Assembly (NCBI GenBank): GCA_943788985.1
Contig: CALSSJ010000023.1
Span: forward strand, 1-64,000
DNA length: 64,000 nucleotides
From: an uncultured Lentisphaerales bacterium
GTDB taxonomy: Bacteria; Verrucomicrobiota; Lentisphaeria; JABSQK01; UBA12247
Reading direction: 5' to 3'
The translations under genes and the position numbers were made by a program. Below, one piece after another: positions 2,630 to 57,885 of this stretch (positions within the stretch are counted from its first letter, which is position 1; every line of letters starts with the position of its first letter). The notes under the pieces were generated by a model. It searched no databases. It saw only the letters and a list, made by a program, of their open reading frames with translations, and was not told the DNA's origin.

Positions 2630-4795
2630 CTATTGAAATCCGACCCGTCTGCGGATTGCCCATTCAGCTACGAGCGGCAAGACCAACGCCAGCAGCAGCC
2701 ACCAATTATCCCATACCGGCGAGGCCGATGCGATGCGCCGCACGGTCACGACCTTGGCCCCAAACGGTACGTCTGCCATTAAGTCAGCTAGCCCAGCCTG
2801 GGACGTGGCCTGGCCTCCCGTACGATCGGAAATGGCTTGAAGCAGTGCAGGGTCTGCCAGTAGATTCTCGTCCTCAATCCGCGAGGCATTTACCGAGATC
2901 CTAAGCTCGTTGCTCTCAAGTGTCTGGCCCCGGTGTTCTCCCTGAGCGCGAATGGAATAGATTCCCGTACTCAGGCGGAGGGCGGCGACCAGACTATCAC
3001 CACTTGGTAACGCAGGCTGAGAGGTGACAGCGCTGCTTTCAAGATCGGTAATCGTTAACGCGACGGCCAGGTTGGGAATTCCAACGTTGTTTTCATCTGT
3101 TGCTGAGGCGATAACTTCCAATGGCTCGCCTGCCCTCACATAGGTCGTGCCCGCCGAAATCGAGAGCCGGCGCGCCATGTCGTCCTCCTGCGATGCCAGC
3201 CAATACAGAGTCCGCATCCAGAGGTGGTCGTAGAGCCTCTTGGGGGTCTCGGGGTTCAGCCGCCAGGTCCAGGTCACAGGCGTGGTCCAAGCCGCCACCC
3301 GGCCCCGACCTGTCTGATCCGTCACCAGCAGCGGGTAATTTCGCTGATCGACGAACAGGACCTCGCTCATAGCCCGTGCCGTCAGAGACCGTAGCCGCAT
3401 CCCATGCCCCGGCAGTCGCTCCCAGGCAAAGTCCCGCGAGCCCAACAGCTGATCCAGTTCCCCCAGAATAAAGTGGCTCTTCTGCGCACCTACGACCTTG
3501 GGGGCAAACTCACGATGCTCCAGGGTCGAGTCGTTCGCCCGTACCGGGAGAATGCTTTGCAGGGGCCGCAACCGATCATCAAGCAGATCATTGAAAGTCG
3601 AACCAATCGCCAGCAGGCCCGCACCCCGGTTCTTCACCAAGGACGGCAGCCGTCGCCACTGATTCGCAGTCAATGTCTCCGGGGCGATTCCGCCGAGAAT
3701 AATGACGTTATAGGCGGACAAATCCAGCCCCTGCACCTCGGCGATACCCCGCTTCGTGCGCAGATAAAACGGCGATGGCGATTCGAGCGTAAAGCCCTCG
3801 TCGGCGGAAATTAACCGCCTAAGAAACTTGTACTGCGGGTTGATCGACGCCTCCAGATACAACACTTGGATCCCTTCTTCCTTCACCCGGACAAACACCT
3901 GCATTTCGTTATTATCCGGCGAGATCTCCCCCGGGAGCGGCACCAGACGCAGTGTCACCAGATAGAACCCTGGCTCATTAATCGCCGGGAGCATCAAGCG
4001 TTGCTTAACCTTCTCGTCAGCGGTCTCGCACTGAATCCTACGGTCTGCGACCCGCTTATCATCCACCAGACACTCCAGCTGGCAGCTACGCCCCTCAGCC
4101 CCTCGAATCAGGCCGGAGATATTGATGGGGAACGGCTTTCCCGCCTCTACCACTGGCGGCACCAGCACGTCGGTCACCACTGCATCAACGATTCCAGCTG
4201 CGAACTCCGCACGCCCAAACTGTGCCGTGTGGATGGGAATCCCGGCTTCGATATAGGGAGCGAGTGCAGGAAGAGGATCTCGCCCGGCAGTGTTGCGCCC
4301 ATCGGACAGCAGAATCACGCCGTGGAGCTTTGCGCCTCGTTCGGCGCGCAGTGCTGAGGACAGCACATCCCCCACAGCTGTCGCCTCCCCCACATCAGCC
4401 CCGTTGTGGGCTAATCGGTCACCGAAGTCGTACTCGGCAAGCTCCAGTAACTGGCCCACCTCGGGGGCTGCCGCGAGCGCCTTCTCCCAGGCTGCATCCA
4501 TCTGCCCTGCTCGCGTCTCACCGCCCCTTCCATCTGCCACCGCCATACTGCCCGACCGGTCCCGAAGTACGATCAGCTTTCCTTTCTCGGCAGTCTCGTG
4601 CACCACCGCGCGGGAGGGCCGCAACGCCATCGTCAGAAGCAGGCCCCAGGCGCAGGCCCGCAGGAACAGCAACAGCACTTTCGGCTTCCAGCCCAGTTGC
4701 GGAGTCCGCACATAGCGAACAAAGGCAGGCGCCATTCCCGCTGCGGCAATGCACAACAGCCACGGGAGTGGTAGAACTGGTGACGTCGCAAGCAT
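2630..4795 (-). CDS. vWA-domain membrane protein with CARDB-like and glutamine amidotransferase-like domains
   Basis: DRSGSM MIDAS motif, LLSDG, N- and C-terminal TM helices, EWAIRRR terminus. Confidence 0.8.
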   Translation of the reverse strand: MLATSPVLPLPWLLCIAAAGMAPAFVRYVRTPQLGWKPKVLLLFLRACAWGLLLTMALRPSRAVVHETAEKGKLIVLRDRSGSMAVADGRGGETRAGQMDAAWEKALAAAPEVGQLLELAEYDFGDRLAHNGADVGEATAVGDVLSSALRAERGAKLHGVILLSDGRNTAGRDPLPALAPYIEAGIPIHTAQFGRAEFAAGIVDAVVTDVLVPPVVEAGKPFPINISGLIRGAEGRSCQLECLVDDKRVADRRIQCETADEKVKQRLMLPAINEPGFYLVTLRLVPLPGEISPDNNEMQVFVRVKEEGIQVLYLEASINPQYKFLRRLISADEGFTLESPSPFYLRTKRGIAEVQGLDLSAYNVIILGGIAPETLTANQWRRLPSLVKNRGAGLLAIGSTFNDLLDDRLRPLQSILPVRANDSTLEHREFAPKVVGAQKSHFILGELDQLLGSRDFAWERLPGHGMRLRSLTARAMSEVLFVDQRNYPLLVTDQTGRGRVAAWTTPVTWTWRLNPETPKRLYDHLWMRTLYWLASQEDDMARRLSISAGTTYVRAGEPLEVIASATDENNVGIPNLAVALTITDLESSAVTSQPALPSGDSLVAALRLSTGIYSIRAQGEHRGQTLESNELRISVNASRIEDENLLADPALLQAISDRTGGQATSQAGLADLMADVPFGAKVVTVRRIASASPVWDNWWLLLALVLPLVAEWAIRRRVGFQ

Positions 4796-4843
4796 CTCAA
4801 TCTACCTGCATTTGCAAAGTCATCGCGTCAGTGAGAACACGGC

Positions 4844-5827
4844 TTAGCGTTTCATCCGTTCATCGATCAGCAGCACGACATCATCCTTGCGCAGCGTTTC
4901 CTGTTCGACGTTATAGCGATACTCACCATCCGTGTACAAGGCGACCGCGCGCGGGAATGCCTCCCGGACCGCCTTGCCGATATCCTCCTCGAGCGGCTCA
5001 ACCTGCTTGATAAACGGGTCTTGCGTCCGGGTGTTAAGCTGCACCAAAAACTTACTGCAGATTGGGCTTACGGCCGCCTGCGACAGCATCCGTCCCAGAA
5101 TTGTAGCCGATGGCAGCAAATAATCCGCGCCCACAGTAAGGAACCGGGCCTGGGTCGCCTCTTCGTTCACGCGAACCGTAGCCTTGATCTCCGGATTAAG
5201 CCCCTTTGCCGTGACCAGAACATAGAGATTTTCGGCATCGGACTGCGTTGCGATAATGATGTGAGCGGCCTTTTTTACGCCAGCCTGAATCAAGGTTTCA
5301 TCGCTCCCCTGATTGCCATAGAGAAAGTTTGAGTCGTTCACCGCCTCGGCGACCGCCTGCGGCAAGTCCAGCATGGGCGCGCTATGTAAGATCACGTACG
5401 GGCTCTCGTGTGCATCAAGCTCGTGCACGATGCTCGCAAGTAAGTCCGTGTGAGCGATCACGATCGTATGATTGTTATTTTTGCCGAGCATCCATTTCCT
5501 CCAGATCTGTTCGAGTGACTTCATTGCGGTCTCGAGCACCACCAACGATGCCCCAAGAAACACCGTGGCTGGTAAAAGCGCGAGCAGGATGGTGCCAATC
5601 CTTCCAGCGTTCGTCTGCGGCGAGTAATCTCCGAACCCGATCGTTCGCACCGTGACGATCACGAAATAGAATGTTTCCAGAACGCCGCCGAAATCTTCTA
5701 CCACCAAGAAATAGGCAGTGAATCCCACCACCATCACAGCCATAAAAATGAACGAGGTCACCAGATAAAAGCTCATCTGGCGCGCCGCGGTCGCAGGCAG
5801 CCGCTTGGTGGACCGAGTATCAGTCAT
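4844..5827 (-). CDS. 2-TM potassium channel with RCK/TrkA-N domain
   Basis: TIGFGD selectivity filter and C-terminal RCK domain (DAENLYVLVTAKGLNP); start overlaps upstream stop (ATGACTGA). Confidence 0.85.
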   Translation of the reverse strand: MTDTRSTKRLPATAARQMSFYLVTSFIFMAVMVVGFTAYFLVVEDFGGVLETFYFVIVTVRTIGFGDYSPQTNAGRIGTILLALLPATVFLGASLVVLETAMKSLEQIWRKWMLGKNNNHTIVIAHTDLLASIVHELDAHESPYVILHSAPMLDLPQAVAEAVNDSNFLYGNQGSDETLIQAGVKKAAHIIIATQSDAENLYVLVTAKGLNPEIKATVRVNEEATQARFLTVGADYLLPSATILGRMLSQAAVSPICSKFLVQLNTRTQDPFIKQVEPLEEDIGKAVREAFPRAVALYTDGEYRYNVEQETLRKDDVVLLIDERMKR

Positions 5828-6311: not shown

Positions 6312-6492
6312 CTCTCCGCCTTTGGTTGGTCTCATATTTGCCGAACATACTGAGACTCTTACGAGAGGCAAGCACATCCGTCGCCTGAGTCGCCGGATCG
6401 CCGGTTGAATCACCCAAGAAATGCGCTTTGGCGAAGTGGTCTTGCAATTTGGCTGTCTACGGGCAATTTACCCAGCTCGCTGATAGCGAAGT

Positions 6493-14966: not shown

Positions 14967-17900
14967 TCAGTTCAGCTCGAGCCGCAAGGCCTCGGTCGCG
15001 AAGACCCAGTATCCTTTGCCCTGCTTGAGCTCGGTCGGCAGATCGAAGTTTCCATTCTCGTAGCTCTGGACCACGCTGATCCGAGGATCGGCCGGCAAGC
15101 GGTCGGTGTTTACTGGCCCAAGCAAGTTCCAGCCTTGCACCAGCTCAACGGCTGGGGCGTCAGCAGGCTCACCGAGATACTCTAGTGTCAGCGGCTCACC
15201 CGTGTGCAACCAGACGCCCTCCCCCACGCGGATCTCATGTGCCGCTGCATATTCACCACTGCGCCACGCCCAGACAGCACCATCAGGAATACGCGCCAGA
15301 AGCGCATCCACAGGCTCGAATGGCTGGGTCGGGAACGAAATCAGGTTCCAGCCCTTGGCCAACTCCAGCGAGAATGTCTGAGGCCCGACCCGCAGGCGCC
15401 GCATCCCGGTGGTTCCGTTGCCATCCGAGAACAGAAAGAAGTCCTCACCACCAAAAGTATCTTCCGGCTCGTAGCGCGGCGGGCCATCGCCTTCATCCAC
15501 AATTGTGCCGCCATCTCCCCGGTTCATAATCGAGAATCCGGCCGGCAGAAAGTTCAGTAGCACCCCGCGCGGCCCGACAATGAGGTCAATGATGTCGTCA
15601 AGGGTTTCGGGACCAAATGGACGTGGCCCCGGCAGGGGAAACGGCCCCAGATCTCCCACGACTGTATCTGCGGCAAAATCAGTGCCGACCAGCTCTGCCC
15701 GCACATGCCACGGAAGTGGCATCTCAGGCAGGTCGCTAAGCGCGGCCCGCTGTGTCCACTGGTAGGTCTCGCCAGGGCTAATCGTCACCTCGGTGAGCGC
15801 CAGCGTAAACGCCTTGTCAGCGGACCAGCGATGCCGCTCGTTCACGACAAAATCCATTTGTAGGCCAGAGGCGAAACCAAGCGTCAGCGACGCACTGCCC
15901 GGGTTGGTCAGGGAGCCATTCACAAGCAGGTAGGAGGCAGTGCCGGTGTTGGCATCCTCCACGATTCTGGCAGATACCTCAAACACGGCTTGCGGCTCAG
16001 GTGGCTCAACGGCGATGACTTCGCAGCCGTTGTTCGCCTCATCAACTTCTTCCACCTTGCCATCCGGATCGGCCGTGACGCGTATCGTGGCCCCTGTTTC
16101 GGCCCGTACCAGCGCCATTGCCCGGTGATGGCCGTACCATGACAGATAGTCCCGGGCGCTCTCGCCATTCGCCGTATCGGCGGTGAACTCCACGGCTACA
16201 TCCTGCAGCTCTGGTCCCGGCCAGATCAGATCCAGCCCGAACAGCCCGGTTGCGTTGGGATCTTCTTCCCACAGCACCGGCACATGCACTTCCTGATACA
16301 CCACCGCGGCATCCGAATCCACCAAGGTCAGCCCAATTGTCACCGGATTGCCGTATGGCATGATCACCGTGCTAAGGTCATCCCAGCGACCATAGCCATC
16401 CAGTTGCACGGCAGACGCTGCGTACCAGGCCGCGTTGTACGCCGCCACCAGTCCTTCGGCGACAGGGCTGGCCTCGCGGGCAATGTAGCTGATCTCCGGA
16501 ACGACCACCACCAAATCAAACTCGCGTTCATGCACAATACTCGGATGCAGAAACTGGTCCAGCGCGGCAATGCCGTCGTGCCACGGAAAGACCATCAGAT
16601 GCAACGGCTCACCCAGTTCGCCGAGCACTTGCAGCCCCATCTGTCGGACCAGTTGTTGGAGAAAGGGATTGTCCAGCGAGGCGGTGATATCCACGGCCTG
16701 CACGTGTGCCTTGTCGCAGACGACACTCAGATCCTCGCCAGGCGTCTCCGACTCGACGCTGAACGTAATCGCGTTGTTGGTCTCGTCCGCTTCGGCGATG
16801 ACATTCTCGGGATCCAGCGTGACCGTCACAGTCAAACCGTTGGGATCATCCGCCAAAAATGCGGTGCTAATGTCTTCGCCGCCGTACGGCAAGCGCACGT
16901 AGCTGACGGCGTCCGTGGTGGCCGCTGTCGATTGAAAGGCAACTGCAATCGGCGTGCCGGGAGTCGGTGCGAACGGGATCGGGCCGTAGTAGTCATAAAA
17001 AACCGGCACCGCTACTCGCCACAACGTCTCAGCGCGCTCGCTTGGGTTCAGGGTCACAGCCAGCGAGGTCACCTGCAGCTCGAAAATCGGCGGCGAGACT
17101 CGCGAGACCGCCAGTATCGAAGGCAATTGCTCGACCGCGGAGACGTACCACTGCTCGCTGATCGCTCGAATCGCGGCCGACACGTCGCTAAGCGGGGTGC
17201 CAAAGTTCTGCGAGTGAATGTCCACCATGAGCGTTGCTGTGGTACTGGCGCCATGCGCGTCATTCGCTGGGTAGACATCGACAAACTGGAATGCCTCGTG
17301 CGCGCCAACTGCAGATACGGTAAGGGCGTCCAAGTGGGCATGCATCGCTTCATTCTCGATGGCTGACGTAATCGTCACCTGGTGGCTCCGAATACGATTG
17401 GCAGCAAAGGACAGATCGTCGCGAACCGGTTCAACCTCATAGGCGAAGCGCGCCTGATTGTTGTCCTCGTCATATTCTTCGACTGCTTCTCGGGCATCCA
17501 CCGTCATCACGCCCTCGATCGTGGTGCTTTCCGCGACGGGAAAAAAGGCCACAGCCGGAGTCTGGTCCCCAACCCACGGCCGCACAAAAATGGTTTTCTT
17601 CGGCGCCGGTTGCGGAGTTCGCAAACCGCACGGAAATCGGCGACGGCCAATAGTCAGCAATCAGCAGAAACATCAGCCAATCATGCCCGACAGCTGCCTC
17701 GACCCGCCAGTAATCCATCGCCAGATCCACCTGGCTGAGCGTCACGTCAATCGAAACTAGCGCCATCGGTTCGAAAAAGCGCACCGGAGTCAGCGCCTCC
17801 ACGTCCGGGGCCCGAACCACAGCCGCATCCACAAACCACAGCGCTTCGAGTGCCTCAACTAGCCCCTCGTACTCTTCGGTCGCGGTGTCACGTGCCCAAG

Positions 17901-19096: not shown

Positions 19097-19249
19097 GACC
19101 GCGCAAAGCACTCGTGGCGCGCCTGTAGAACGGGAGCCTGAAAGCCGCAAGCCTATTAAGAGATCGCCTTCTTACTGCAACTCTGATTCCCATTCATGCG
19201 GCATGGTTCACTGTTGCGAACATTGCAAAACCTGTCGTGAGACCAACTC

Positions 19250-42814: not shown

Positions 42815-45610
42815 CTACCGAGGCCTACTGCGCCGCCGCCTCTTCTGTGGTTCTGTGAGCACCAGCGCCAGGTTCCCCGTAACCCTCGGCAACACCCAAG
42901 TCGCCACTTCGGCGTCCCCTAGTTTCATCAGTGCCGACCCAGGCTTGGCAGTAGCCAGATCCCAGATCCGCACCTCCCGGCTCGTCCCCGACCCCAAACC
43001 CGGCAGGCTGAGTAGCGCCCCAGCCACCGCCAGCTCCGACGAATTCTCCACGTAGATCAGGCCCGTGCGAGCCGCCAGCACCGAGTCGCAACGTAACGCC
43101 ATCACCTGCTCGTCCGCCGGCTCCAGCCGAATACTTGACCACCGCAGCCACCCCGCGCCAGTGCACGCCAACTCCACAACATGGGCTCCCCCCGGAATCC
43201 GCACCCGCATCCGTGCCCCGGTTGCGAACTTCGCAACTGGCCAGCTTGTCTCGGAGATCGGCTTCCCATCCAGCAGGATCCGCAGCCCACTCCCCCGGTC
43301 GTCCACACTCTCCACCGTAAGGACCAACTCCAGCGCTGCATTCGTGCTCAGCTCCAGTCGCATCCCCGCGGACGCCTCCGGGTGCAAGTATGCTGGCAGC
43401 GGCTCGCGCATAGAAACAGTCAACAGCTCATCAATCCCCGCCGTCCCCGCCTCGCCGTCAGGATCGAACCCCACAGCCACCGGGACCAGAGTCAGCTCTC
43501 CAGCCTTGCCGCGCGCAGGTGCCCTCACCACCACCCGGTCCATCGCCATTACTCGGCCATCGAGAAACCGCCGCCAAGCCACTAGCGACTCACCCAGCCC
43601 ATCATCGGCCGCAAACGGAGCGGGTGCCCCAGCCAGTGCTGCCTTATACAAAGCCGAACGCACCACCGACTCATGCCATAGACGCAGGCCATGCCCATCA
43701 CCCGCCACCACCGCCTGAATCTCCCCGTCACTCACAATCCAGCGACGATTCATCACCATCCCCAGTGCTTGGTCCCACTCCTCCAGCAGCCATTCCCCCT
43801 CGCGCACATCCGAGATCGTCAAGGACAACGCCCCTGTCGCCGCCGCCTGCCCCTCTGGAGACAACAGCATCGCCGTCTCACCACGAAGCCCATGTGCAGG
43901 CACTGCCGAAAAAGCCGGGACCAGCCGAATCCCCTTCAGCTGAAACCAGTCCGCTCCCCCGTTATAGATCCTGAGCGTATGCTGCCCAGCTGGCACCCAA
44001 GTCGAATAGGTCCCCTGATGCCGCATCACCGGCCTGGCCCGCTCACGTTCCAGGCGTGAAATCGAAAACACCTCGCTCTCTCCGCCAACGCCATCCAGCT
44101 CAAACCCAAGCGTCGCGCCCACATAGGACACCTCGCCCACCTCCAGTTCTACCGAAACCCCATGTGCCGCGTCCACTTCCACCGTGATCTCGTTTAGTTG
44201 ATCCGGCCTCACTGCGCCGTGTACGTAGGCTGGCAGCTCACCCTGCAGCGCTGGATTTGCGGAGTTCGCAAACAGCGTCACCGGATTCGCATCCGTACGC
44301 TCAAACACCCCGTCAGGCGGCCGAAACTCTCCCGCGCCGAGTGCTCCAGCGGGCTGCAACTGCACCGTCAGCGGCCGTGCATGCTCCCTGCGCGCATCGA
44401 ACGGCCCCAGCCACGCCTCATGGCGCGCGTACTCCGGATACAGACTCTTGCCTCTGGCCGCGACGCTCCGATACAACGCCCGCTCCAGCCAGGCCCCATG
44501 CGCCTCCACACGAGCCCCCGGAACCGCAGTCATCTCCGGCAGTTGGCCCGACAGCAACGTCAGCGGCTGCTCACACGCCGCCACAAAATTCGCCGCGGCC
44601 GCATGCCCCGCATAGGGCGCGTAATGGTGCTTGGCATCGTGATTGCGCCAGAACATCACAAAGCTGATCCGCCGCGCCACCGGATCCGCCAGAATCGGGC
44701 CGAGCAGACAGTCTGTAAACCAATTCTCAGTCGGCAGGCCTTCCTCGCCACACTCCGTCAGGGCCGCCACCTTGTCGCGCTCGTCTGCCAGCGCCACCAT
44801 CACCCGCAAGCGCCGCACCAGCGCGTCCCGCTGTTCTTCAGACTGCAGCGATTCATAGCTATCGTGCCCCAGCACATCCACCACATCATCCCCCGGATAG
44901 CGCAGTAAGTATGACTCTCGATCCACAAAATGATCCGGTGCATACGCAATCAGCAACTGATGCAAATCATAGGTTTTGCGGAGTTCGCAAACCGTCCAGC
45001 GAAACAGCTGCCGATACGCCTCATCCGAGCACGCCCCCGTCCCCCACCAAAACCACGGCCGATTGGGTTCGTGGTACGGCCGCAAAATGAGCGGAATCCG
45101 CGCGCCATTGTCATCCGTCAGGGCCGCCAAAATCCGCGCCACGCGCCGCACCTCCCGAAGCAACAGCCCGTGGTGAGTCCCGCCCGGCAACAACTCCGCC
45201 ACCCGCATCGACTCCGTGTCCTTGAACGACCCGCCCGTGACCAACTCATGCATATGCCAGGTCACGGTCTGCACCTCGCCTCGCCGATGCGACTCCTGCA
45301 CCAGCGTGCGCAGGCTCGACTCCGTCAGCCCGTTCAGCAGCGCCTCTCCGGTTCCGCCATCGGCGCTGCCCACATCCCAGCCCAGCACCGCCGGATGGGC
45401 CCCACAGACACTCTTGAAGTCCGAGCGTCCTGCCTCGCCCTGCCAGCCGACACCATATGCCGTGGCATCCTGATGCCCCAGCATGATCCCAAACGCCGCC
45501 AGATCCTGCAGATTTGCGAACAGCGCACGCGCCGCCGGGTCGGCTGCCGGGTCGCTTGGCCTAGAGAAGACAACAGAGCAAAGAACAACAGATGTCAGAA
45601 TAGCGCGCAT
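42815..45610 (-). CDS. GH26 beta-mannanase-like protein with C-terminal beta-sandwich domains
   Basis: GHQD, RPYHE..WFWWG, YPGDDVVDVLGHDSY, ALTECG, WRN. Confidence 0.85.
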   Translation of the reverse strand: MRAILTSVVLCSVVFSRPSDPAADPAARALFANLQDLAAFGIMLGHQDATAYGVGWQGEAGRSDFKSVCGAHPAVLGWDVGSADGGTGEALLNGLTESSLRTLVQESHRRGEVQTVTWHMHELVTGGSFKDTESMRVAELLPGGTHHGLLLREVRRVARILAALTDDNGARIPLILRPYHEPNRPWFWWGTGACSDEAYRQLFRWTVCELRKTYDLHQLLIAYAPDHFVDRESYLLRYPGDDVVDVLGHDSYESLQSEEQRDALVRRLRVMVALADERDKVAALTECGEEGLPTENWFTDCLLGPILADPVARRISFVMFWRNHDAKHHYAPYAGHAAAANFVAACEQPLTLLSGQLPEMTAVPGARVEAHGAWLERALYRSVAARGKSLYPEYARHEAWLGPFDARREHARPLTVQLQPAGALGAGEFRPPDGVFERTDANPVTLFANSANPALQGELPAYVHGAVRPDQLNEITVEVDAAHGVSVELEVGEVSYVGATLGFELDGVGGESEVFSISRLERERARPVMRHQGTYSTWVPAGQHTLRIYNGGADWFQLKGIRLVPAFSAVPAHGLRGETAMLLSPEGQAAATGALSLTISDVREGEWLLEEWDQALGMVMNRRWIVSDGEIQAVVAGDGHGLRLWHESVVRSALYKAALAGAPAPFAADDGLGESLVAWRRFLDGRVMAMDRVVVRAPARGKAGELTLVPVAVGFDPDGEAGTAGIDELLTVSMREPLPAYLHPEASAGMRLELSTNAALELVLTVESVDDRGSGLRILLDGKPISETSWPVAKFATGARMRVRIPGGAHVVELACTGAGWLRWSSIRLEPADEQVMALRCDSVLAARTGLIYVENSSELAVAGALLSLPGLGSGTSREVRIWDLATAKPGSALMKLGDAEVATWVLPRVTGNLALVLTEPQKRRRRSRPR

Positions 45611-46042: not shown

Positions 46043-48154
46043 TCAGCCCATATCGCGCACAAGCTGCTCACTGCAGCGAAAGGCCAAGGCGTAAATTGTC
46101 AGCACCGGGTTGAAGCCGCCATTTGTCACGTGTAACGACCCGTCGATGACGGACAGGCCCTCGTGGCCGTGCACCCGACCGTATGAATCACAGACCGATG
46201 TCGCCGGATCATCCCCCATGCGACAAGTCCCCGCCTGATGCTGACCGCCCGGTCTCCCAGGCCGACGCGGGGCATTGCGCCACAAACGCTCGGCATCCGA
46301 CGCCCCAACCCAGTCCGCAGCCCGGTCGGCCAGAAACTGTGATGCGCGTACACTCTCCTCGTGGCATACCCCCGAAAGAACCGCCGCTGGAATCCCCAAC
46401 GAATCACGGACACCGGGATCCACTCGTACGCGGCAATCCGGCGTGGGAATCTCCTGAATCGGCCCACAGACATGGATCATACGCCGAGCATCTTCACGCA
46501 TGAATCGCTTATTCTCCGCACCCCAGCCGGGCACTCCCGGCGGCAGATGGCCATGCCACGTGATCACCGGCAGCAACACAAACTCATCGCACAGCATCCC
46601 ACCGCCAATAATCCCCTCGTTGCCGTGACTCCAGTGCGTCGTACCGATCCGGACCCCAGGCCCAGTATAATCCACCACCTCTCGGCGCAAAATCCCACGC
46701 GCACCGCTGTACAGATGGCCCTGCAGGTTGCGACCCACCTGATCGTTCTGATTGCCCAAGCCCTGCGGAAACCGATCTGTCGCGCTGTTCAGCAACAATC
46801 GCGCCGACTCAATCGCCCCCGCACTGCACACCACTTGGCGTGCCTGCACCGTGTGACAGCTCGGCCCATGATTTCCCTGGCGCCGCAGTTCCACAGCGGT
46901 CGCCCGCCCCTCGTCATCCACCAACACCCGGGCCGCAGAAGTCTCCGTCAACAGATCGCAGTTTCCCGTCGCCAGCGCGCGCGGAATCACGCTGTTGTGC
47001 GAGCCTGTTTTGGCATCCACCGGGCACTCAAAGCCCACACAGGCGCCACACCCAGCGCAGGCTGGCCTGCCGCCGTAATCCGTCGAGTTGATCAGCAATG
47101 GCGGAGCCCCTGTCGCAATCCCTAGCTTCTCCGCGCCTTTGCGGAGTTCGCAAGCCGCCGGGGTATCCGGCAGTGGTGGCATTGGGTACGGCGCAGACCG
47201 CGGTGCAGCGTGAAATGCGGAGTCCGCAACCCCGCAGACGCCCAGCTCTGCCTCCGCCTGCGCATAGTGCGGGGCCAACTCCTCGTAAGAAATGGGCCAA
47301 TCGGCGAGCGAACTTCCCTTTGGCACGCCGTAGTCGCTCGCCATGCGAAAATCCTTCGCTAAAAACCGCCAAGCCTGCGCACCGTACAGGCGAGTCCCCC
47401 CGCCCAGCATCTGCGCGTTATTACTCCAGCCCCCATGGTTGGGCTGAAGTACCCGCCGGGTCCCGTCCTCGCCAATTACCACGCGCGGGTTGCCCGCCAA
47501 CGCCGGGCCGCCATTGATTCCGTAACGGCTCAGGCGATGATTGCGCAGATGATCGCTGCCAACCGTGCCCTGCGGGCGCCAGCTGCCCCGCTCCACCAAG
47601 AGCACCGTCTTACCAGCTTCTGCCAGCTGACAAGCCACCACCCCGCCCCCTGCTCCGGCACCAATCACCACAGCATCGTATCGTTCGCGCAACTGCTCGG
47701 GTGCGATCTCCGCAAGCTCCGCTGGAGTGTGCGCGCGGGTAGGCCGCTTAATCGCCGGGCTGTAGCTCATCATCGGCCAGCCTGCCTCCGGGCCATGCGC
47801 CCCGCTGCTTGCGTCCGAGTAGTAATTCTCCGCCACCAGCGCATTCGCATCCCGAAACCAGCCAGCCTGCTCTCCAGTTGCGAACTCCGCAAGCAGCGCG
47901 TCCTGCGCCGCTGCGGCCAACTCTGCGAACTCCGCATCAGCCAGCCTTTCGAGGCCAGCCAGAAACTCGTCCTGCTTGTGCGCCCAATCGCCCGCCAGCA
48001 ACCGCGAGACATAGTCCTCACATTCCGCCTCGGCACCATCCGGCCAGCCGTCGCCTCCCGGAATTACCCGCCGGGCAAACGCCCGCAGCACCTCTCTCTG
48101 CTTATCTGTGACAGCTCTACGCCCCGTTTTGCTTCGCAACCGCGAACAATCCAT
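46043..48154 (-). CDS. GMC oxidoreductase fused to an N-terminal gluconate-2-dehydrogenase subunit-3-like domain
   Basis: IGAGAGG FAD motif, LGGGT, HQAGTCRMG, NPVLTI; N-terminal RRVIPG..P.GA.A..YV..L. Confidence 0.85.
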   Translation of the reverse strand: MDCSRLRSKTGRRAVTDKQREVLRAFARRVIPGGDGWPDGAEAECEDYVSRLLAGDWAHKQDEFLAGLERLADAEFAELAAAAQDALLAEFATGEQAGWFRDANALVAENYYSDASSGAHGPEAGWPMMSYSPAIKRPTRAHTPAELAEIAPEQLRERYDAVVIGAGAGGGVVACQLAEAGKTVLLVERGSWRPQGTVGSDHLRNHRLSRYGINGGPALAGNPRVVIGEDGTRRVLQPNHGGWSNNAQMLGGGTRLYGAQAWRFLAKDFRMASDYGVPKGSSLADWPISYEELAPHYAQAEAELGVCGVADSAFHAAPRSAPYPMPPLPDTPAACELRKGAEKLGIATGAPPLLINSTDYGGRPACAGCGACVGFECPVDAKTGSHNSVIPRALATGNCDLLTETSAARVLVDDEGRATAVELRRQGNHGPSCHTVQARQVVCSAGAIESARLLLNSATDRFPQGLGNQNDQVGRNLQGHLYSGARGILRREVVDYTGPGVRIGTTHWSHGNEGIIGGGMLCDEFVLLPVITWHGHLPPGVPGWGAENKRFMREDARRMIHVCGPIQEIPTPDCRVRVDPGVRDSLGIPAAVLSGVCHEESVRASQFLADRAADWVGASDAERLWRNAPRRPGRPGGQHQAGTCRMGDDPATSVCDSYGRVHGHEGLSVIDGSLHVTNGGFNPVLTIYALAFRCSEQLVRDMG

Positions 48155-48224: not shown

Positions 48225-49135
48225 ATGATCGCAGTGAACCGCCCACAATCAACAATCAACCGCCTATTGTTGACCCTGTTCGGAATTGCGATCCTCATCG
48301 GCGCCGGGAAAGTCACTTGGACCGAGTTCCAATCCTACCTCTCGTTGCGGAGTTCGCAACAGTGGGGACAGCGCCCGGCCACCTTTACCAAGATCCTGAA
48401 GGACGCCGACGATAGCATCATCGGCGCCGAGTTCACCTACAGCTTTGACGGAACACTGCGGACCGGCGATCAACTCTACCTGCGAGGCCTCACTCCGCCT
48501 GCGCAGCTGAAGTCCATCACCCTAGGTGACCAGACCACCTGCTACGTCAGCTCGCAAGGCGAAGCGGTGTGGACGCCACAGTTCACCGACCTTACGGCTT
48601 CGGCCCTGTATGTGATGATTCCCATCCTCATTCTATTTCCGTTCTTCATCATCATTCTGTCCCTACTTCACCAAAATTTCAGTGGTTCGCTGGGGTGCCA
48701 TCATCGGGGATGCAGTTTGTTTTTCTTGGCTTACGGATTGTTCTTGACCTGACAGCGCTATGCCTGGCGTGGAAACTCTTGCGTCACGGTAAAGGCATAG
48801 ATTCAATTCTCGAGTGGGAGGATACAAATGTCATCGGCGACGTTCTGCGCGGACGCCTGCTAGTGGGGACTAAGTCCTCACCTGACTCGGTAAAACTCAA
48901 GCTCTCCCACACTACAGAAAAATCCGATAACAACACAGCCGTAGCAGAGTGTACTGTGGACACACGCCAGATTGATGGCCGTAGTGTTGCGGAGTTCGCA
49001 ATTCCAATCCCCGGCTATTGCCCGCCCACAGCTGAGAACGTTACCTGGAAACTGCAATTTCACGACGGCAAGCGCTGGTCATGGGCGCTTGAACTCCCCC
49101 TGGCTCGCGCTCCTACTGAGGCTTTTCAATGGTAG
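48225..49135 (+). pseudogene. DUF3592-like membrane protein, split by a frameshift at ~48700-48750
   Basis: TM helix, S..W..P..I..FTYSFDG..G, TM helix; continues in another frame. Confidence 0.5.
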
Positions 49136-49830: not shown

Positions 49831-51552
49831 AGCAGAGGCAATCGCTGGGATCACGCCGCGGACGGAGTTGAGGATGGCCAGGGCATCGCTGCGGGGCAGG
49901 TCTTGGGGCGTGATTGGGGCCTCGACGAGCTCTCCGCTGGCCAGCAGTTCACTGCGCAGGGTCCCGGCCAGCAGGCCGCAATCGATAGGCGGTGTCAGCC
50001 ACTGCCCGCGCAAGAGCACGGCCAGGTTGCCAATGGAGGTCTCGGTGCACTCGCCGCGCTCATTGACGAGGATGACGTCATCGGCCGCAGGGGCGGACTG
50101 GCGTGCGGTGTCGTAGGCGAGGCGATGTGTGGTTTTGTGGCGCAGAAACAGGTCCTGACTGTGGACGGAGTCGGGCACGACCTTGAGCCTCCAAGGCTCG
50201 CCGGTGAGGCAGTGAAGGGTCTGTGAGCGAGGCGTCGATACGGCGGATGCTGTGAGTTCGACCCTGCCTTGGGGATCACAGGTCAGACGAAGGCGGGTAG
50301 GCTCTTGGTCCTGACGGTGCCTGAGCCGTTCACGCAGGGCGGGCAGGTCCAGGGCAAAGCCAAAGTAGGATGCGGAGTCCGCAAGTCTGGCCAGATGGCG
50401 GTCCAACAGCCAGATGCCCTCTCCGGGCAGGCTGATCATGGTCTCGAGCAGGGAGAATCGTGGCTGTGGGCGCTGCATGATCTGCGCCTTGAGCAGGCAT
50501 TCGGCATACTCGAGCTGGGTTGCGGAGTCCGCAATCACGCCGCTGCCTACGCGATAGTGCGCGCGCCCGTCGGCTGCGACCTGAAGGGTGCGTATGGCCA
50601 CGTTGAACAGGGACCGCCCATCGGGCAGCAGGCAGCCGATGGCCCCGCAGTAGGCGCCACGCGGTGCTTCTTCCAGCTGATCGATCAAGCCCATCGTCTG
50701 GACTTTGGGCGTACCAGTGACGGAGCCGCAGGGAAATAATGCTTGCAGGCAGTCCCAGAGCGTGGTGGCCTCGGAAATCTTGGCGCTGACGGTGGAGGTC
50801 ATCTGCAGCACGGTGGGGTGCCGCTCGACCTCGAATAATGCCGTGGGCTCGACACTGCCGAAGTCGGCGATACGGCCAAGGTCGTTGCGGAGCAAGTCGA
50901 CGATCATCACGTTCTCGGCACGGTCTTTCTCGGAACTGGCCAGTTCGTGCGCCAAGGCATCATCTTGAGAGGTGCTGAGTCCGCGTGGCCGGGTGCCCTT
51001 CATCGGGCGGCAGGTCAGGGTGGTCCCCTCGCGCTTGAAGAACAGTTCCGGCGACAGTGAGATTAGGGACCAGTCCTCGGTTTCGATGCAGGCGAAGTAG
51101 CCGAGCTGTGTGGTGGGACATAGATCTTGAAACAGCGCCATGGGGCTACCAGTGAGGGTGCCGTGCATGCCAAAGGAATAGTTGACCTGATAGGTCTCGC
51201 CGTCTTTGATCCGCTGGTGGATATCGGCCATGTGTCGGCGATAGGTGCTGGCACTGATGGCAGGCACGAGCGGGGAGAGTGAGGCGGCGGATCGTTCAAT
51301 GGGAGCGGTTTCGCCACAGACGCCGAACCAGGCAAGCGGCAGGTCGAGCTCCCGACTGGCCAAGGCGCTGTCGAAGGCTGGTGCAGCGTCGTAGGCGATG
51401 TAGCCGACAACGGTGGCTCCGCCTGCGGCGGCGGCTTCGGCCGCGGTGATGACAGCGCGAACGTCGGCCAGATCGTGGGCGACGAACTGTCGCGATATCT
51501 TAGTGAAGAAGTGGACGCCCTCGGACCGAAAGTCAATCCGGGCGCGGTTCAT
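49828..51552 (-). CDS. pabB: Aminodeoxychorismate synthase component I fused to ADC lyase (PabB-PabC)
   Basis: SPELFF, PMKGT, AENVMIVDLLRNDLGR, FPCGSVTGTPK; class IV aminotransferase C-terminus (HKTT.R, CGLLAGT, NSVRG). Confidence 0.92.
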   Translation of the reverse strand: MNRARIDFRSEGVHFFTKISRQFVAHDLADVRAVITAAEAAAAGGATVVGYIAYDAAPAFDSALASRELDLPLAWFGVCGETAPIERSAASLSPLVPAISASTYRRHMADIHQRIKDGETYQVNYSFGMHGTLTGSPMALFQDLCPTTQLGYFACIETEDWSLISLSPELFFKREGTTLTCRPMKGTRPRGLSTSQDDALAHELASSEKDRAENVMIVDLLRNDLGRIADFGSVEPTALFEVERHPTVLQMTSTVSAKISEATTLWDCLQALFPCGSVTGTPKVQTMGLIDQLEEAPRGAYCGAIGCLLPDGRSLFNVAIRTLQVAADGRAHYRVGSGVIADSATQLEYAECLLKAQIMQRPQPRFSLLETMISLPGEGIWLLDRHLARLADSASYFGFALDLPALRERLRHRQDQEPTRLRLTCDPQGRVELTASAVSTPRSQTLHCLTGEPWRLKVVPDSVHSQDLFLRHKTTHRLAYDTARQSAPAADDVILVNERGECTETSIGNLAVLLRGQWLTPPIDCGLLAGTLRSELLASGELVEAPITPQDLPRSDALAILNSVRGVIPAIASA

Positions 51553-52739
51553 GGCTGCTCGGCTGCCAGCTGTTCCACGAGGCTGCGGTCGAGCGCATTG
51601 AGGTTGGTCACGGAACCGAGTGGATTTGGCAGGGCAATGGAGAGTTCGCCGCCGAGATGCTCGCGAAACTCGTCAAGCCCCTGCCAGACCGCCTGGAAGT
51701 CGGTCTGCAGCAGTGTGTGTGTGGTCGGCAGTCCGACGGCCCGCAAGGCACCCACCACACGATCGCAGTCCGCCTTCTCGATGAGCCTGACTCGAGCTGC
51801 GTAGCGGAGATCAAGCGCGACGCCAATGGCCACGGCCTCGCCGTGCAGTAAGGAAAAGTCGGTGAGACATTCGAGACGGTGGGCGGACCAATGGCCAAAG
51901 TCCAGAGGCCGACTCGTCCCTTGCTCGAACGGATCGCCGCCCGCGCAGATGTGGGCCATGTGCAGTTGAGCCGTGCGCTCAATCATGTGGGCCTCTGCCT
52001 CCGCTTCGCGGTTGCGCAGTTCGCACACATGGTCGCAAAGCCAGTCGAGGAAGTCTCGGTCCTTGATGATGCCCACTTTGAATGCCTCGGCGAGGCCACT
52101 TACCCAGGTGCGCTGATCAAGCGTAGGCAGGAAATCATAGTCACAGACGACTAGATCCGGGACTTTGAAGGCGCCCCAGAAATTCTTGGTGCCGAAGCCA
52201 TTTATGCCATTCTTCACACCGACCCCGGAATCGTTCATGGACAGGACGGTGGTAGGCATGCGCACCAGGCGGAGTCCGCGATGGGCGGTGGCAGCGACAA
52301 AGCCAACGGCGTCCAGCACGGCACCGCCCCCAATGGCGATCAGATAGGAATGGCGACAGAGCTTGTGGTCCCGAATCCAGCCACCAAGGTCCTCGATCAC
52401 TGGCCATCCGGCTTTGGCTGCCTCGCCGCCAGCGATGGTGCGAATGTCGATGAGCTGGAGTGCCGGCGCATGGCGAGCGGCCCAACGACGAATACGATCG
52501 AAGAGCCCGGGGTGCGCCACCGCAACATTCTCATCGATTACCACAGCGATCCGTGCGGGTACCATTTCGTCCGGAAGCCAGGCATAGTCGTCAAAGGCGC
52601 CGCGCAGGAAATGCACGGCGTAGGCCGCCTCTAGGGTGAAGCGGCTGCTTTGGATGTTGGTCGCGGCAATGGTGGGCAAAGTAAGAATCCCCGACGGCTG
52701 AAAAGCCTCAATTTCTACAGGAGCGCGCCGGGCGTGCAA
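51549..52739 (-). CDS. 3-dehydroquinate synthase family protein (EboD-like; start uncertain)
   Basis: GGEAAK, GGGAVLD, MPTT, GDPFE..RPLDFGHWSAH, HGEAVAIG. Confidence 0.85.
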   Translation of the reverse strand: MHARRAPVEIEAFQPSGILTLPTIAATNIQSSRFTLEAAYAVHFLRGAFDDYAWLPDEMVPARIAVVIDENVAVAHPGLFDRIRRWAARHAPALQLIDIRTIAGGEAAKAGWPVIEDLGGWIRDHKLCRHSYLIAIGGGAVLDAVGFVAATAHRGLRLVRMPTTVLSMNDSGVGVKNGINGFGTKNFWGAFKVPDLVVCDYDFLPTLDQRTWVSGLAEAFKVGIIKDRDFLDWLCDHVCELRNREAEAEAHMIERTAQLHMAHICAGGDPFEQGTSRPLDFGHWSAHRLECLTDFSLLHGEAVAIGVALDLRYAARVRLIEKADCDRVVGALRAVGLPTTHTLLQTDFQAVWQGLDEFREHLGGELSIALPNPLGSVTNLNALDRSLVEQLAAEQP

Positions 52740-53776: not shown

Positions 53777-54961
53777 ATGCAGATTCTACTAGGAATCACG
53801 GGTGGTATCGCGGCGTACAAAATGGTGGACGTCTCGAGTACGCTGCGGCAGCGGGGATGCGATGTCCGCGTTGCGATGACCCCCAGTGCACAGGCTTTTG
53901 TACAGCCGACTACGTTCGCGGCCGTCTCAGGCGCAGGGGTTCTGACTGAGATGTTCGGCGATGCACGCACGGATGACCTAAAGGCGCATTACCCCCACCT
54001 GTACCCGGCGATGGAGGCAGACGCCTTTGTGCTCGCACCGGCCACAGCCAACACGATTGCGAAGATCGCGACCGGAATCGCCGACAACGTGGTGACCTGC
54101 TCGGCGATCTCGCTGCCAAAATCTGCCCGGCGATTCTTTTGCCCGGCGATGAACGCGCGCATGTGGGAGCAGGATGTCGTGCAGGAGAACGCGGCCTTGC
54201 TTCGTGAACGAGGCTGGCAGCAACTGGGCCCGGATAACGGACACCTGGCCTGCGGAGTGCTGGGAGCAGGCCGCATGGTCGATCCCGCGAGTATCGTAGA
54301 AGCGGTCCTAGCGACCGAGGACCGGGTGCTCGCTGGCAAGCGAGTCTTGATCTTGTCCGGCCCGACCCGCGAGCCGATCGATGCGGTGCGCTACATCACC
54401 AACCACAGCAGCGGCCTGATGGGTAAACTCCTCGCGGAGCAGGCTGTGGCGGCAGGTGCGACGGTAGACTTTGTGACCGGCCCGGTGACGACGGAGAATC
54501 TCCCGAGCGGCCCCGGCATCCAGCGGCATCCGGTGGGAACTGCCGCCGAGATGCTCGCTGCTGGTCAAGCGCATTTCGCGGATGCGGACATCGCAATCTT
54601 TGTCGCTGCGGTGGCAGACTTCACCATCTCCGATGCGGACACCGCAATCAAGATGGCGCGTGGTGCAGGCGTTCAGCTTAGCCTGACGCCCACCGTGGAT
54701 ATCGCGGCGACGCTGTCGGCGCAGAAGCGCCCTGATCAGTGCTGCGTGGGGTTTTCGCTCGAGGCCACTGCAGACGTCGAACGGGCAACTGCGAAACGGG
54801 CACGGAAACAGCTCGACGGCATGGTCCTGAATACGGTAGAAGCGATGAACGCCGAGGGTGGTACGTTTACCTGGATCGGGCAGTCTACGTCCGACTGGGG
54901 ACCACTCAGCAAGCGTGAATGTGCCGGGAAGATTCTACAGCAAGTCGCAGCGCTGGTATAG
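53777..54961 (+). CDS. coaBC: Bifunctional phosphopantothenoylcysteine decarboxylase/ligase
   Basis: GITGGIAAYK, APATAN, PAMN, LACG..G.GRM, GPTREPIDAVRYITNHSSG. Confidence 0.95.
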   Translation: MQILLGITGGIAAYKMVDVSSTLRQRGCDVRVAMTPSAQAFVQPTTFAAVSGAGVLTEMFGDARTDDLKAHYPHLYPAMEADAFVLAPATANTIAKIATGIADNVVTCSAISLPKSARRFFCPAMNARMWEQDVVQENAALLRERGWQQLGPDNGHLACGVLGAGRMVDPASIVEAVLATEDRVLAGKRVLILSGPTREPIDAVRYITNHSSGLMGKLLAEQAVAAGATVDFVTGPVTTENLPSGPGIQRHPVGTAAEMLAAGQAHFADADIAIFVAAVADFTISDADTAIKMARGAGVQLSLTPTVDIAATLSAQKRPDQCCVGFSLEATADVERATAKRARKQLDGMVLNTVEAMNAEGGTFTWIGQSTSDWGPLSKRECAGKILQQVAALV

Positions 54962-55769: not shown

Positions 55770-57120
55770 CGTAGTTGCTCCTCTAACCATTCTAAGGCCT
55801 GCTCACGAGAAGTGAGCGCGCCATCCAGCTGTAAATCTTGAGCCTTCCGCAGCAGTTCGCCAATCCTTGGCCCCGGCGCGATGCCGAGCGCCATGGCATC
55901 GCCGCCGCGCAGCAGCGGCTCGGGAACTGGCGGTTCGTTGGCCAGCGCAGCCAGCTCATCCAGGCAAAAGACGTAGTTGTCTAAGATCCCATGGCAGGCC
56001 AAACAGTCGATGCGATGCAGGTCTAGCTCGAGCTCGAAGGTGTCGCGCCCAAACATGCGCCGCAGTGTTGCCTTGCGCATCTTTTTTACGTCGGCAAAGG
56101 ACATGTGGTAGTAGACTAGCTCGCGGACTTGGCGGATGTGCTCATTGGAGGCTTTGAGGCGCTTGAGGATGTCCTCGGCCATGTCCGCGCCGACGGCTGC
56201 GTGACAAGGAAAGGTCTCGCGACCATGGGACCCAATCTCAAAGGTGGGTGGCTTGCCTACATCGTGCAGCAGCACGCCCCAGGCCAACGCCGAACAGGGA
56301 TGCACCATATTGCGCAGCAGCAGCATGTTGTGGACCCAAACGTCCCCTTCCGGGTGATATTCTGGCGGCTGGGTCACGCCATGCATACAGGTCAGCTCCG
56401 GCAGAATCTCTTCCAACAGCCCAAGGCGGTCCAGAAGTTCGAATGCCTCGGCGGGTTGCGCCCCGGTGAGCATCTTGTCTAGTTCCGAAAAAATTCGCTC
56501 GGCGCTGATCTGGGTGATCGAGCCGGAAAACTCCTGAATTGCTGACTCCGCAGCGGAGTCGAGCGGGAACTGAAACCGGGCGGAGAAGCGGACGGCGCGC
56601 AGCATGCGCAGGTAGTCTTCCTCGAAACGACGGGAAGCATCACCGACGGTTCGAATGATGCCCTTTTTAAGGTCTGTCAGGCCGCCGATAAAATCTACGA
56701 TTTCATGGGAAACGGGGTCGTAGAAGAGCGCGTTGATGGTGAAGTCTCGGCGCTTGGCGTCCTCTCGGGCATCGGCAAAGGTTACGCCTTCCGGCCTGCG
56801 GCCATCGACGTAGCCGCCATCAATGCGGAACGTGGCAACTTCGGTTTGGACCTCTTCTCCCACGACGACGATGACGCCAAAGGCAGCGCCGACGGCGACG
56901 TTGCGGCGAAAGAGCTTCTGCACCTGCTTCGGAGTTGCGCCGGTGGCTACGTCTACATCGTTGGGGGCCCGGCCAAGTAGACGGTCGCGGACCGCACCGC
57001 CGACCACATAGGCCCTCGTGACCGTGCTCCCGTAGAGTCTGCACGATGAACGCCGCGTGTTCCTCGGCGGGAGTCAGGCCGGCTTGCTGGCCAGATCTGG
57101 TTATGAATTCGTTCGGACAT
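55766..57120 (-). CDS. cca: CCA-adding tRNA nucleotidyltransferase/poly(A) polymerase with HD domain; two apparent +1 frameshifts at the 5' end
   Basis: VGGAVRD, DVDVAT, RRDFTINAL, EDYLRMLRAVRF, HDVGKP; N-terminus recovered by removing a base at ~57080 and at ~57013-57015. Confidence 0.9.
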
Positions 57121-57180
57121 GGTGAGGTTCTCCGTTCGGCAAATCACCGGCTGATGCCGCACTCGCCTGTTCTTTCAAGC

Positions 57181-57885
57181 TCAACGTCGCCGCAGAGTCG
57201 CTAAAGCGCGCAAAGTAAATAATGCCTCTTTGCGCACCCAGGGAGGGGCGTCCGGAGCTTCGCTTAGTGTTTCGACCGCCTCCAGAAAGCCAGGTGCCTC
57301 GTTGCGGAGTTTACGCACCATATAGACGGACGCCCAGCGCGCCTCCCAGAAGCTGCGCGTCTTTTCCTGGCCTGCGTGGGCGTCTGGATTAAGATGATCG
57401 GCGAGCAGTTGAATCTCTTCGGCACTTTCACCACCTGGCTGCAGGGCGATAATTGCCCCAGCTGCGTAGGTGTGTAGAACCGGGTCTTCGGACCAGAAGA
57501 ACACGCGTCGGATGCTGGCCATAGTCTCGTCTTCGACCTCGCCGAAGTTGGCAAATGCGCGCATCATGAAGGCACGATTTACGGGATCGGGCTCGACGTC
57601 GAAGGCCGCTCGCAGTGCGAACTCCGCAATGCTGCCGTCATGCCGCAGCAACTCAAGAATGTGGGCGGCTCTCCGACGCTCCCATTGATCGCCCCGCAAG
57701 TCACCGCGCAGCATCTCAGCAGTCTGCTCAAGGGTGGCCCGCAGCTTGCGAATCTCTGGCAGAGTTGGGGGGCGGCTTCCAGAATCCCGCCAGGAGGTTT
57801 GCCGAAGTTCTGGTTGACCCCGAGGGGGCGTGACGCATCCACAGAGCGCGCTAGCCAGTAGGCCTAGGCCAATCAGGCTTCGCAT
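57181..57885 (-). CDS. Helical-repeat lipoprotein
   Basis: ALCGC lipobox; HEAT-like helices. Confidence 0.55.
   Translation of the reverse strand: MRSLIGLGLLASALCGCVTPPRGQPELRQTSWRDSGSRPPTLPEIRKLRATLEQTAEMLRGDLRGDQWERRRAAHILELLRHDGSIAEFALRAAFDVEPDPVNRAFMMRAFANFGEVEDETMASIRRVFFWSEDPVLHTYAAGAIIALQPGGESAEEIQLLADHLNPDAHAGQEKTRSFWEARWASVYMVRKLRNEAPGFLEAVETLSEAPDAPPWVRKEALFTLRALATLRRR

Follow-up and report, generated by a model that had tools for sequence, protein, structure and literature searches.

Why would a single 13-bp word recur 21 times within 64 kb of bacterial DNA, almost always inside genes? The question is raised by contig C23 of an uncultured Lentisphaerales genome, labeled G000, whose positions 1 to 64,000 constitute the window analyzed here (G000:C23:1-64000), and in which the original prediction had listed 21 exact copies of a palindromic word. 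All 21 coordinates matched in an exact check, and dinucleotide shuffling reproduced the claimed chance expectation of 0.01 strict copies per window (mean of 100 shuffles, none with more than one copy). The broader TGCGRWSWYCGCA variants number seven rather than the six first reported, and a matrix search of the window returns 34 sites, namely the 21 strict copies, the 7 broad variants and 6 weaker sites. The genes that carry them are unrelated housekeeping and catabolic genes. Our own gene caller places 19 of the 21 strict copies inside genes, the copy at 27201 being intergenic; the earlier figure of 20 holds once the copy at 17611 is counted in the longer open reading frame (ORF) at 14967-17660.

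The same abundance is found across the genome. The G000 draft (4.58 Mb in 48 contigs, 58.3% GC, 83.6% complete) contains 850 strict copies (186/Mb) on 47 of its 48 contigs. The spaced form TGCG-N5-CGCA occurs 1,749 times, against 142 to 205 occurrences for each of 15 other spacer lengths, and strand-counts number 1,700 against the 8 expected from a fifth-order Markov model. Matrix iteration settles at ~1,770 sites and 21 bits, nearly all within ±7 of the center. The arms alone show no enrichment (TGCG at 0.99 and TTGCG at 1.03 of expectation), only the full 21-bit spaced word being enriched. According to our gene caller (4,310 genes, 85% coding, with many apparent frameshifts, so that intergenic sites are overcounted), 755 of the 850 strict sites (89%) lie in genes. 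Synonymous-codon shuffles leave 7 to 19 in-gene sites and codon-order shuffles leave 0 to 3 (10 replicates each). By compartment, the enrichment is 186-fold in genes, 91-fold upstream of genes and 83-fold in other intergenic DNA. The in-gene sites mostly encode Ala-x-x-Ala and fall 537, 112, and 106 times in the three frames, which bears out the claim that all three frames are used, though unevenly. Most of the encoded tetrapeptides are inflated 2- to 12-fold (e.g., AEFA, 201 versus 33; CELR, 73 versus 6). Because the in-gene counts exceed those of the shuffles and the peptides are inflated, the constraint acts on DNA and is strong enough to alter proteins. That the DNA and not the protein is constrained had been proposed from the window, and both the synonymous shuffles and the cross-species retention of arm codons described below sustain this view; counted against codon-preserving shuffles and a high-order Markov model, as had also been suggested, the word stands far above both.

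The word takes the form (T)TGCG-RW-S-WY-CGCA(A) and spans 13 to 15 bp. Its TGCG and CGCA arms are nearly invariant, single changes over the eight arm positions totaling 129, mostly transitions, against 424 exact consensus copies. The inner positions tolerate G or A and A or T, and the centers found in G000 are AACTC (424 copies, the commonest), GACTC (239), AACTT (109), ATCTC (100), and AAGTC (78). Of the 15- to 17-bp arm extension noted earlier, one base stands (T/A at −7/+7, about 0.6) and the next is weak; the matrix holds ~0 bits beyond ±8, in agreement with the reported lack of flanking homology. The description as a palindrome needs correction: the arms do form a dyad, but the whole is a quasi-palindrome with polarity. 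With the center base read as C, AACTC outnumbers GACTT by 424 to 78 in G000 and by 54 to 7 between its genes; the polarity is opposite in the relative G028 (18 to 34, p = 6e-14), and AACTT leads in G204 (277 kb sampled). Lineages differ by dialects in the inner five bases around fixed arms. At the inner variable positions complementarity is without excess (873 versus 874.5 and 473 versus 505 expected), the two halves varying independently. This independent variation, together with a commonest form that is not self-complementary, speaks against a hairpin and in favor of two half-sites that contribute additively on duplex DNA, as would be expected of a site read by a homodimer; the dimeric reader imagined in the original prediction fits this two-fold anatomy. 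Small complementarity excesses were also seen at ±7 and ±9 (z of 2.4 and 3.5, among 12 positions). Neighboring sites at a 16-bp spacing are more frequent in G000 than expected (11 pairs versus about 1), an excess that was not replicated in relatives (1 of 26 pairs, in 31 genomes).

How did the word enter so many genes? Among 176 sites with a paralog (30 to 95% identity), 26 touch an alignment gap (14.8% versus 11.3% in the control) and 2 look like insertions. Identity in this comparison is 37.7% at the sites versus 42.5%, and close paralogs carry one- and two-base near-matches at the site positions. For the proC site of the window, all 10 homologs compared align to the encoded peptide without gaps, in a stretch that is variable. 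These alignments show gain by point substitution, not by insertion; the ortholog comparison proposed earlier for this purpose likewise yields stepwise near-matches at the same positions. With the absence of flanking information, this origin upholds the initial rejection of a miniature inverted-repeat transposable element (MITE) or repetitive extragenic palindrome (REP). Conservation was assessed by comparing two 20-kb stretches of G204 with five congeners of genus g85 at 73 to 80% DNA identity. Over about a dozen site positions, whose comparisons are not independent, the site recurs at the same position in 92 of 119 aligned pairs. The alanine codons of the arms are kept in 19 of 20 comparisons, versus 352 of 875 other GCG/GCA codons, and the center base switches. 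Such retention points to maintenance rather than passive decay. Elsewhere in G204, an 88-kb stretch of 40 to 45% GC (C52:1-88000; L197-L200, L098) holds no site, other contigs having 47 to 51% GC and several sites; it is either an island or a mis-binned contig.

The word is a feature of the class Lentisphaeria. There, 39 of 250 genomes from 15 of 30 families contain at least 40 broad copies (up to 789; at most 12 in the reversed control), and none of 134 genomes from elsewhere in the phylum exceeds 11. No genome of the three largest families (173 genomes) has more than 27 broad copies, and positive and negative genera occur within the same families. Lentisphaerae bacterium RIFOXYA12_64_32 has 691 copies, SI037_bin151 has 455, and a Victivallaceae genome has 17; G000 shows the highest density seen (253/Mb). 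Related genomes in these counts are not independent. Such a distribution would fit either an old system lost several times or one gained repeatedly. The best ProC relatives of G000 are Lentisphaerae and Victivallales genomes (50 to 54%), and the public runs that contain its DNA are marine or estuarine; when metagenomes were scanned with its GMC gene, the matches were one identical contig and 79 distant homologs, none from a close relative of G000. Among viral loci with an exact 15-mer, 59 of 60 had no second broad copy within 3 kb. One 28-kb viral record, G390 (L195-L196), labeled Mu-like by eye from its gene content, contains 14 broad copies and 16 matrix sites against 0 in the control, i.e., ~500 sites/Mb, which is near the density of native G000 genes (546/Mb). 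Four other viral records have 1 to 2 copies each, and no G000 protein matched G390 (E 1e-8). The word may serve to assign G390 a Lentisphaeria host.

Along G000, the counts per 10 kb are over-dispersed (mean of 2.5, variance of 5.8). With "core" approximated by GC content at third codon positions (GC3) and by paralog number, density is 50/Mb below a GC3 of 0.6 and about 370/Mb above 0.7, and it is 327/Mb in single-copy genes and 91/Mb in families of more than 30 paralogs. Stretches without any broad copy extend over 25 to 87 kb; five long ones (70 proteins scanned) encode mostly sulfatases, glycosidases, Calx-beta repeats, DUF1553/DUF1501 proteins, and a Mutator transposase. The ribosomal-protein cluster (C11, 151 to 164 kb) has 0 sites in 13 kb where about 5 are expected. 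Even in native genes, sites clump at 1 to 3 kb (dispersion of 1.51). Intergenic rates do not differ between divergent (146/Mb), tandem (163/Mb), and convergent (157/Mb) neighbors, and replication-strand bias in G000 is not significant (p = 0.067). No periodicity between 8 and 49 kb was found on contigs longer than 120 kb (p = 0.41 versus 300 block shuffles), longer periods being beyond the reach of this draft. In near-complete relatives the sites lie along whole replicons, uniformly on G028 C1, G028 C2, and G025 C1 (Kolmogorov-Smirnov p of 0.92, 0.78, and 0.47) and skewed on G025 C2 (p of 0.001, for the 100 of 102 sites listed). The largest site-free gaps in G025 and G028, whose origin and terminus were not located, amount to 8 to 13% of a replicon, none being significant.

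Which protein reads the word? Candidates were profiled in class genomes with or without it, a negative meaning that a protein was not found with the given query, in incomplete genomes; the reader gene may lie in the missing 16% of G000. No ParB_N was found in G000, and it occurs in 5 of 30 positive and 11 of 35 negative genomes (16 of 65 in total, mostly weak matches). The SMC hinge, found in 8 of 69 class genomes, does not track the word, and a MksB-like protein occurs in 11 of 69, all in the order of G000, among positives and negatives alike. RecC is present in 17 of 34 positives and 26 of 35 negatives; genus g85 and family f12, both strongly positive, are among those in which it was not found. 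The full-length C5 methylase of G000 (contig C17) has no conserved ortholog, its best full-length relatives being 33 to 38% identical, with no match in 14 of 33 other positives; this profiling covers the full-length C5 enzyme only, a C35 fragment and the adenine and N4 methylases lying outside it. TetR and HTH_8 proteins were chosen on the basis of typical operator shapes: the only clear TetR of G000 lacks a conserved ortholog (at most 34% over its length), and the five HTH_8 matches, in G000 only, all lie in long sigma-54-activator-type frames, none being a stand-alone Fis-like protein. HU, looked up in G000 only, is represented by one gene. By eye, no obvious autoregulated DNA-binding gene lies downstream of the intergenic sites. 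A second long ComEC operon, carried by 7 of 42 genomes enriched in the word, by 1 of 38 other genomes and not by G000, was rejected as the reader since it does not track the word. The original prediction had proposed correlating the word with candidate DNA-binding and methylase genes; this was run for ParB, SMC, MksB, ComEC, RecC, the C5 methylase, and TetR, and none of them tracks it.

Several of these loci are of interest in themselves. The second ComEC-family gene (930 to 1,050 amino acids) directly follows a conserved 670-amino-acid gene with DHH/DHHA1-like features, a C-terminal membrane segment and no Pfam match (L087:2234-7050 in G011, L088:7351-12260 in G005, L089:5821-10970 in G087, and L090:3910-8811 in G017; also in G013, G159, G197, and G222). 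This partner occurs in 8 of 80 genomes searched, and the pair is possibly a dedicated DNA-import and degradation unit. The C5 methylase gene (G000:C17:79194-81275; L187:9194-11275) is followed by two small genes, all three having atypical codon use, and looks like part of an acquired restriction-modification module. G000 has two RecC-like genes (C9:7553 and C10:180442). An mksF-mksE-mksB-like operon (L253-L256), in which the F and E labels are given by position and size without a Pfam match, occurs in 11 of 14 other genomes of the order; G000 has the first two genes (C5:123699-125623), but its assembly yielded no B subunit, whether next to this pair or at another locus. In most of the 65 to 69 Lentisphaeria genomes searched, some of them in 1 to 5 contigs, the queries detected neither canonical ParB nor canonical SMC.

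What, then, might the word do? Our preferred reading, which we hold tentatively, is that it may be the duplex binding site of a putative homodimer and serve to mark DNA as self during uptake or recombination. That a homodimeric protein binds it is probable, this element being common to the preferred reading and to the nucleoid, defense, and transcription-factor readings weighed below. We propose a model in which a putative homodimeric Lentisphaeria protein would read the word, and cells would favor site-bearing DNA for uptake, protection, or recombination into the chromosome. A point mutation giving rise to a site would then spread by molecular drive wherever the protein sequence tolerates it. 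Such drive would fill long-resident DNA (native genes and temperate phage), and recent islands and tightly constrained genes would stay empty; loss of the reader would lead to loss of the word in that lineage, and drift of the reader or of base composition would yield the inner-five-base dialects. A role in uptake or recombination is favored because distribution features of uptake sequences are matched, because HIP1, the highly iterated palindrome of cyanobacteria, improves transformation, and because phage density is easier to account for under drive; the uptake-type option seems to fit the distribution best.

Several points weigh against this reading. No reader was found among the candidates profiled, and ComEC was not found in the 83.6% complete assembly of G000; its presence in 29 of 30 positive relatives would favor the reading, but it does not discriminate, since 33 of 35 negatives have it too (62 of 65 altogether). 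Known uptake sequences are asymmetric, and a two-fold site would better fit a cytoplasmic dimer. The phage evidence is a single record, G390, whose Lentisphaeria host is putative, and the conservation test covers few sites, about a dozen and not independent. Sites clump at 1 to 3 kb, where drive with diminishing returns might be expected to space them out. Moreover, any slow selection at the DNA level would be expected to enrich core over accessory genes and to conserve the sites.

Could an abundant dimeric nucleoid protein instead fold or bridge the whole chromosome, with sites kept by weak selection on architecture? The two-fold anatomy with additive halves would suit it, as would a length of 13 bp, that of matS in the account cited (PMC6907758), the even spread on three of four near-complete replicons, the 16-bp neighbor pairs of G000, the scarcity of ParB_N, SMC hinge, and MksB-like proteins in the class, and the structural role that has been proposed for HIP1 (PMC5861425). 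Yet negative genomes are also without ParB and SMC, so that the word is not needed as a replacement; there is no 8- to 49-kb periodicity, the 16-bp excess is absent in relatives, intergenic DNA, the cheapest place for such sites, is less enriched than genes (83- to 91-fold versus 186-fold), and a phage at core-gene density would be harder to explain by host architecture. We regard this explanation as rather unlikely. A self-mark for a defense or DNA-quality system appears distinctly improbable. In this scheme, DNA breakdown by a nuclease or helicase would stop at a bound or marked site, in a Chi-like but two-fold symmetric manner; foreign DNA would be destroyed, and adapted phages would mimic the mark. 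The absence of the word from accessory islands, its density in the Mu-like phage and the Chi-like role suggested for HIP1 in a preprint (bioRxiv 2024.09.10.611283) speak for it, but RecC is commoner in negatives than in positives and was not found in g85 and f12, replication-strand bias is not significant, and the 25- to 87-kb stretches without a broad copy are apparently harmless.

A further proposal, modeled on Elhai's account of HIP, is that a methyltransferase and biased mismatch repair create and keep the word without benefit. The word does resemble HIP1 in being a GC-rich palindrome gained by substitution, and alternate HIPs are described as coming with a cognate methyltransferase (PMC4390886). 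However, the C5 methylase of G000 sits in an apparent restriction-modification module with distant relatives and no match in many positives, the arms alone are unenriched, and same-position conservation across species argues for selective maintenance. The methylase-driven signature offered in the original prediction thus gains no support, as far as the full-length C5 enzyme is concerned, and is in our judgment very improbable. Slimmer still are the chances of an operator of an ordinary or global transcription factor. A 13- to 15-bp dyad with a free center base is typical of operators, and an NtrC-family gene has a site 25 bp upstream; nevertheless, genes hold 89% of the sites, divergent intergenic regions show no higher rate than convergent ones, the only clear TetR is without a conserved ortholog, and the HTH_8 proteins are all of the sigma-54-activator type. 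Finally, short repeats inside genes can be insertion scars, but a footprint or remnant of a mobile element is virtually without credit here: nothing is conserved beyond ±8, paralog and homolog alignments are mostly gap-free, and orthologs show stepwise near-matches, so that this origin is refuted for the sites tested.

Within the window, sites are given with the strand on which the center base is C. The gene at 2630-4735 (−) carries strict sites at 4199..4211 (+) and 4698..4710 (−) in different frames. The strict site at 17611..17623 (−) lies in the 5′ part of ORF 14967-17660 or just upstream of the CARDB gene there. A 2-oxoacid:ferredoxin oxidoreductase carries a strict site in its beta gene (21913..21925, −) and broad variants in its alpha gene (22732..22744, +; 23066..23078, +; 23222..23234, −). 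Further strict sites lie in an RNase II-family gene (25274..25286, +), between genes (27201..27213, +), in proC (30100..30112, −), and in an ammonium transporter gene (41842..41854, −), and a broad variant lies in a HAD hydrolase gene (33138..33150, −). Strict sites at 43223..43235 (+), 44258..44270 (−), and 44977..44989 (−) each fall in a GH26 gene, a weaker matrix-only site (45515..45527, +) being at the 5′ end of a GH26 ORF. GMC oxidoreductase coding sequence contains strict sites at 47140..47152 (−), 47216..47228 (−), 47879..47891 (+), and 47924..47936 (+) and a broad variant at 47702..47714 (+). The strict sites at 42462..42474 (−), 48346..48358 (−), 48988..49000 (−), and 57616..57628 (+) are each in a gene without a Pfam match, and those at 50371..50383 (−) and 50521..50533 (−) in a chorismate-binding/aminotransferase IV (pabB-pabC-like) gene. 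A coaBC-like gene has broad variants at 54583..54595 (+) and 54634..54646 (+) and a matrix-only site at 54058..54070 (−). The remaining matrix-only sites lie in aroB (52013..52025, −) and, more weakly, between genes (19215..19227, +), in a CCA-adding/poly(A) polymerase gene (56540..56552, +), and in a DctQ gene (58341..58353, −, weak).

Other features of the window were noted alongside. Rfam matches are one tRNA and the signal recognition particle RNA (31074-31170), and nothing else; at 31209-33720, dnaX follows this RNA and is itself followed by the HAD hydrolase gene. In many bacteria, ybaB-recR is the usual pair downstream of dnaX. Contigs from all four public DNA runs compared include a form in which 210 bases at 53300-53511, upstream of a small zinc-ribbon-type gene and without a site, are swapped for 46 others; many sequence differences between public-run contigs and the window stem from other organisms. 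The intergenic stretch 49310-49500 shows ~3-fold depth and opposite-strand joints in such contigs and is probably a dispersed repeat. Three DNA runs show a joint linking 49003 to 48343, which was rejected as a site-mediated rearrangement, being due to cross-mapping from a three-site cluster on contig C38.

Genes saturated with a selected DNA word are known from only a few groups of bacteria, and the role of HIP1 has been open for three decades. An open-literature search, outside which lie subscription journals, bioRxiv supplements, RegPrecise, and REBASE, found no account of such a word in Lentisphaeria, so that an earlier mention is possible; a survey of spaced motifs in prokaryotic genomes mentions neither Lentisphaera nor Victivallis in its main text and four supplements (PMC5217627). 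With its ~21 bits, its positive and negative genera within families and its dialects, the word should make its reader findable by a co-occurrence screen or a DNA pull-down. Phages and plasmids could be matched to Lentisphaeria hosts by means of the word, which could also serve to date gene residence in these polysaccharide-degrading bacteria and, if it biases uptake, aid genetic work on the group.

The likeness to matS, parS, and nucleoid-occlusion sites suggested at the outset is not supported, as the sites spread along replicons without a large gap and ParB, SMC, and MksB do not track them. MatP/matS of Escherichia coli has a 13-bp site bound by a dimer, as is proposed here, and the order of G000 has a Muk/Mks-like operon; however, in the account cited, 23 matS sites are confined to the Ter macrodomain (PMC6907758), whereas the hundreds to >1,000 sites seen here extend over entire replicons, with no tracking of the word by the MksB-like gene. 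For parS/ParB and Noc, no ParB-family CTPase was found in G000, and in relatives it is no commoner among positives. REP and MITE elements differ in that the word has neither flanks nor hairpin, is mostly genic and was not inserted. Chi, the site recognized by RecBCD, is present in about a thousand coding-compatible copies that favor self DNA in recombination, and it is short, asymmetric, and oriented with replication; the number and coding compatibility are shared, but the present word is symmetric, without significant strand bias and not tied to RecC.

HIP1 and the alternate HIPs, as described in the reports cited, are closer: hyper-abundant GC-rich palindromes in and between genes, gained by substitution (PMC4390886; PMC5861425; PMC13756078), conserved across species yet patchy within the clade, with a function tied to transformation or chromosome structure. 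HIP1 sites raise transformation according to a preprint (bioRxiv 2024.09.10.611283). Molecular drive is the mode of spread of uptake sequences and has been proposed for HIP1. The 83- to 186-fold enrichment found here by compartment falls within the 15- to 300-fold range that defines HIPs. Unlike HIP1, a contiguous octamer from a different phylum, the present word has 13 to 15 bp, a tolerant five-base center, and polarity; no co-distributed C5 methylase was found with it, and the 10- to 90-kb periodicity of HIP has no counterpart at 8 to 49 kb. With the DNA uptake sequences (DUS) of Neisseriaceae and the uptake signal sequences (USS) of Pasteurellaceae it shares, in the features described for them, copy numbers in the hundreds to thousands, inflation of the encoded peptides, a preference for variable residues, lineage dialects, core genes denser than accessory ones, and perhaps, judging from the one record G390, accumulation in temperate phage; core-over-accessory distribution, inflated peptides, and temperate-phage accumulation are reported for uptake sequences (PMC2817400; PMC6776037), whose reader is a known or predicted minor pilin (PMC12616744). 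The word differs from them in its two-fold symmetry with additive halves and in not being concentrated at terminators (convergent versus tandem rates above). Altogether, the word is real, selected, and class-restricted, and it resembles HIP1 and uptake sequences yet fails defining tests of each, as no periodicity or methylase was found and it is not asymmetric. A class-old, methylase-independent self-recognition system, in which a dimer would read a spaced 15-bp palindrome and bias which DNA is taken up, protected, or recombined, is conceivable, if doubtful. If true, drive would rewrite about a thousand coding positions per genome and mark temperate phages, and genomes would have a third way of acquiring hyper-abundant tags, the other two being uptake sequences read by pilins and HIPs linked to methylases.

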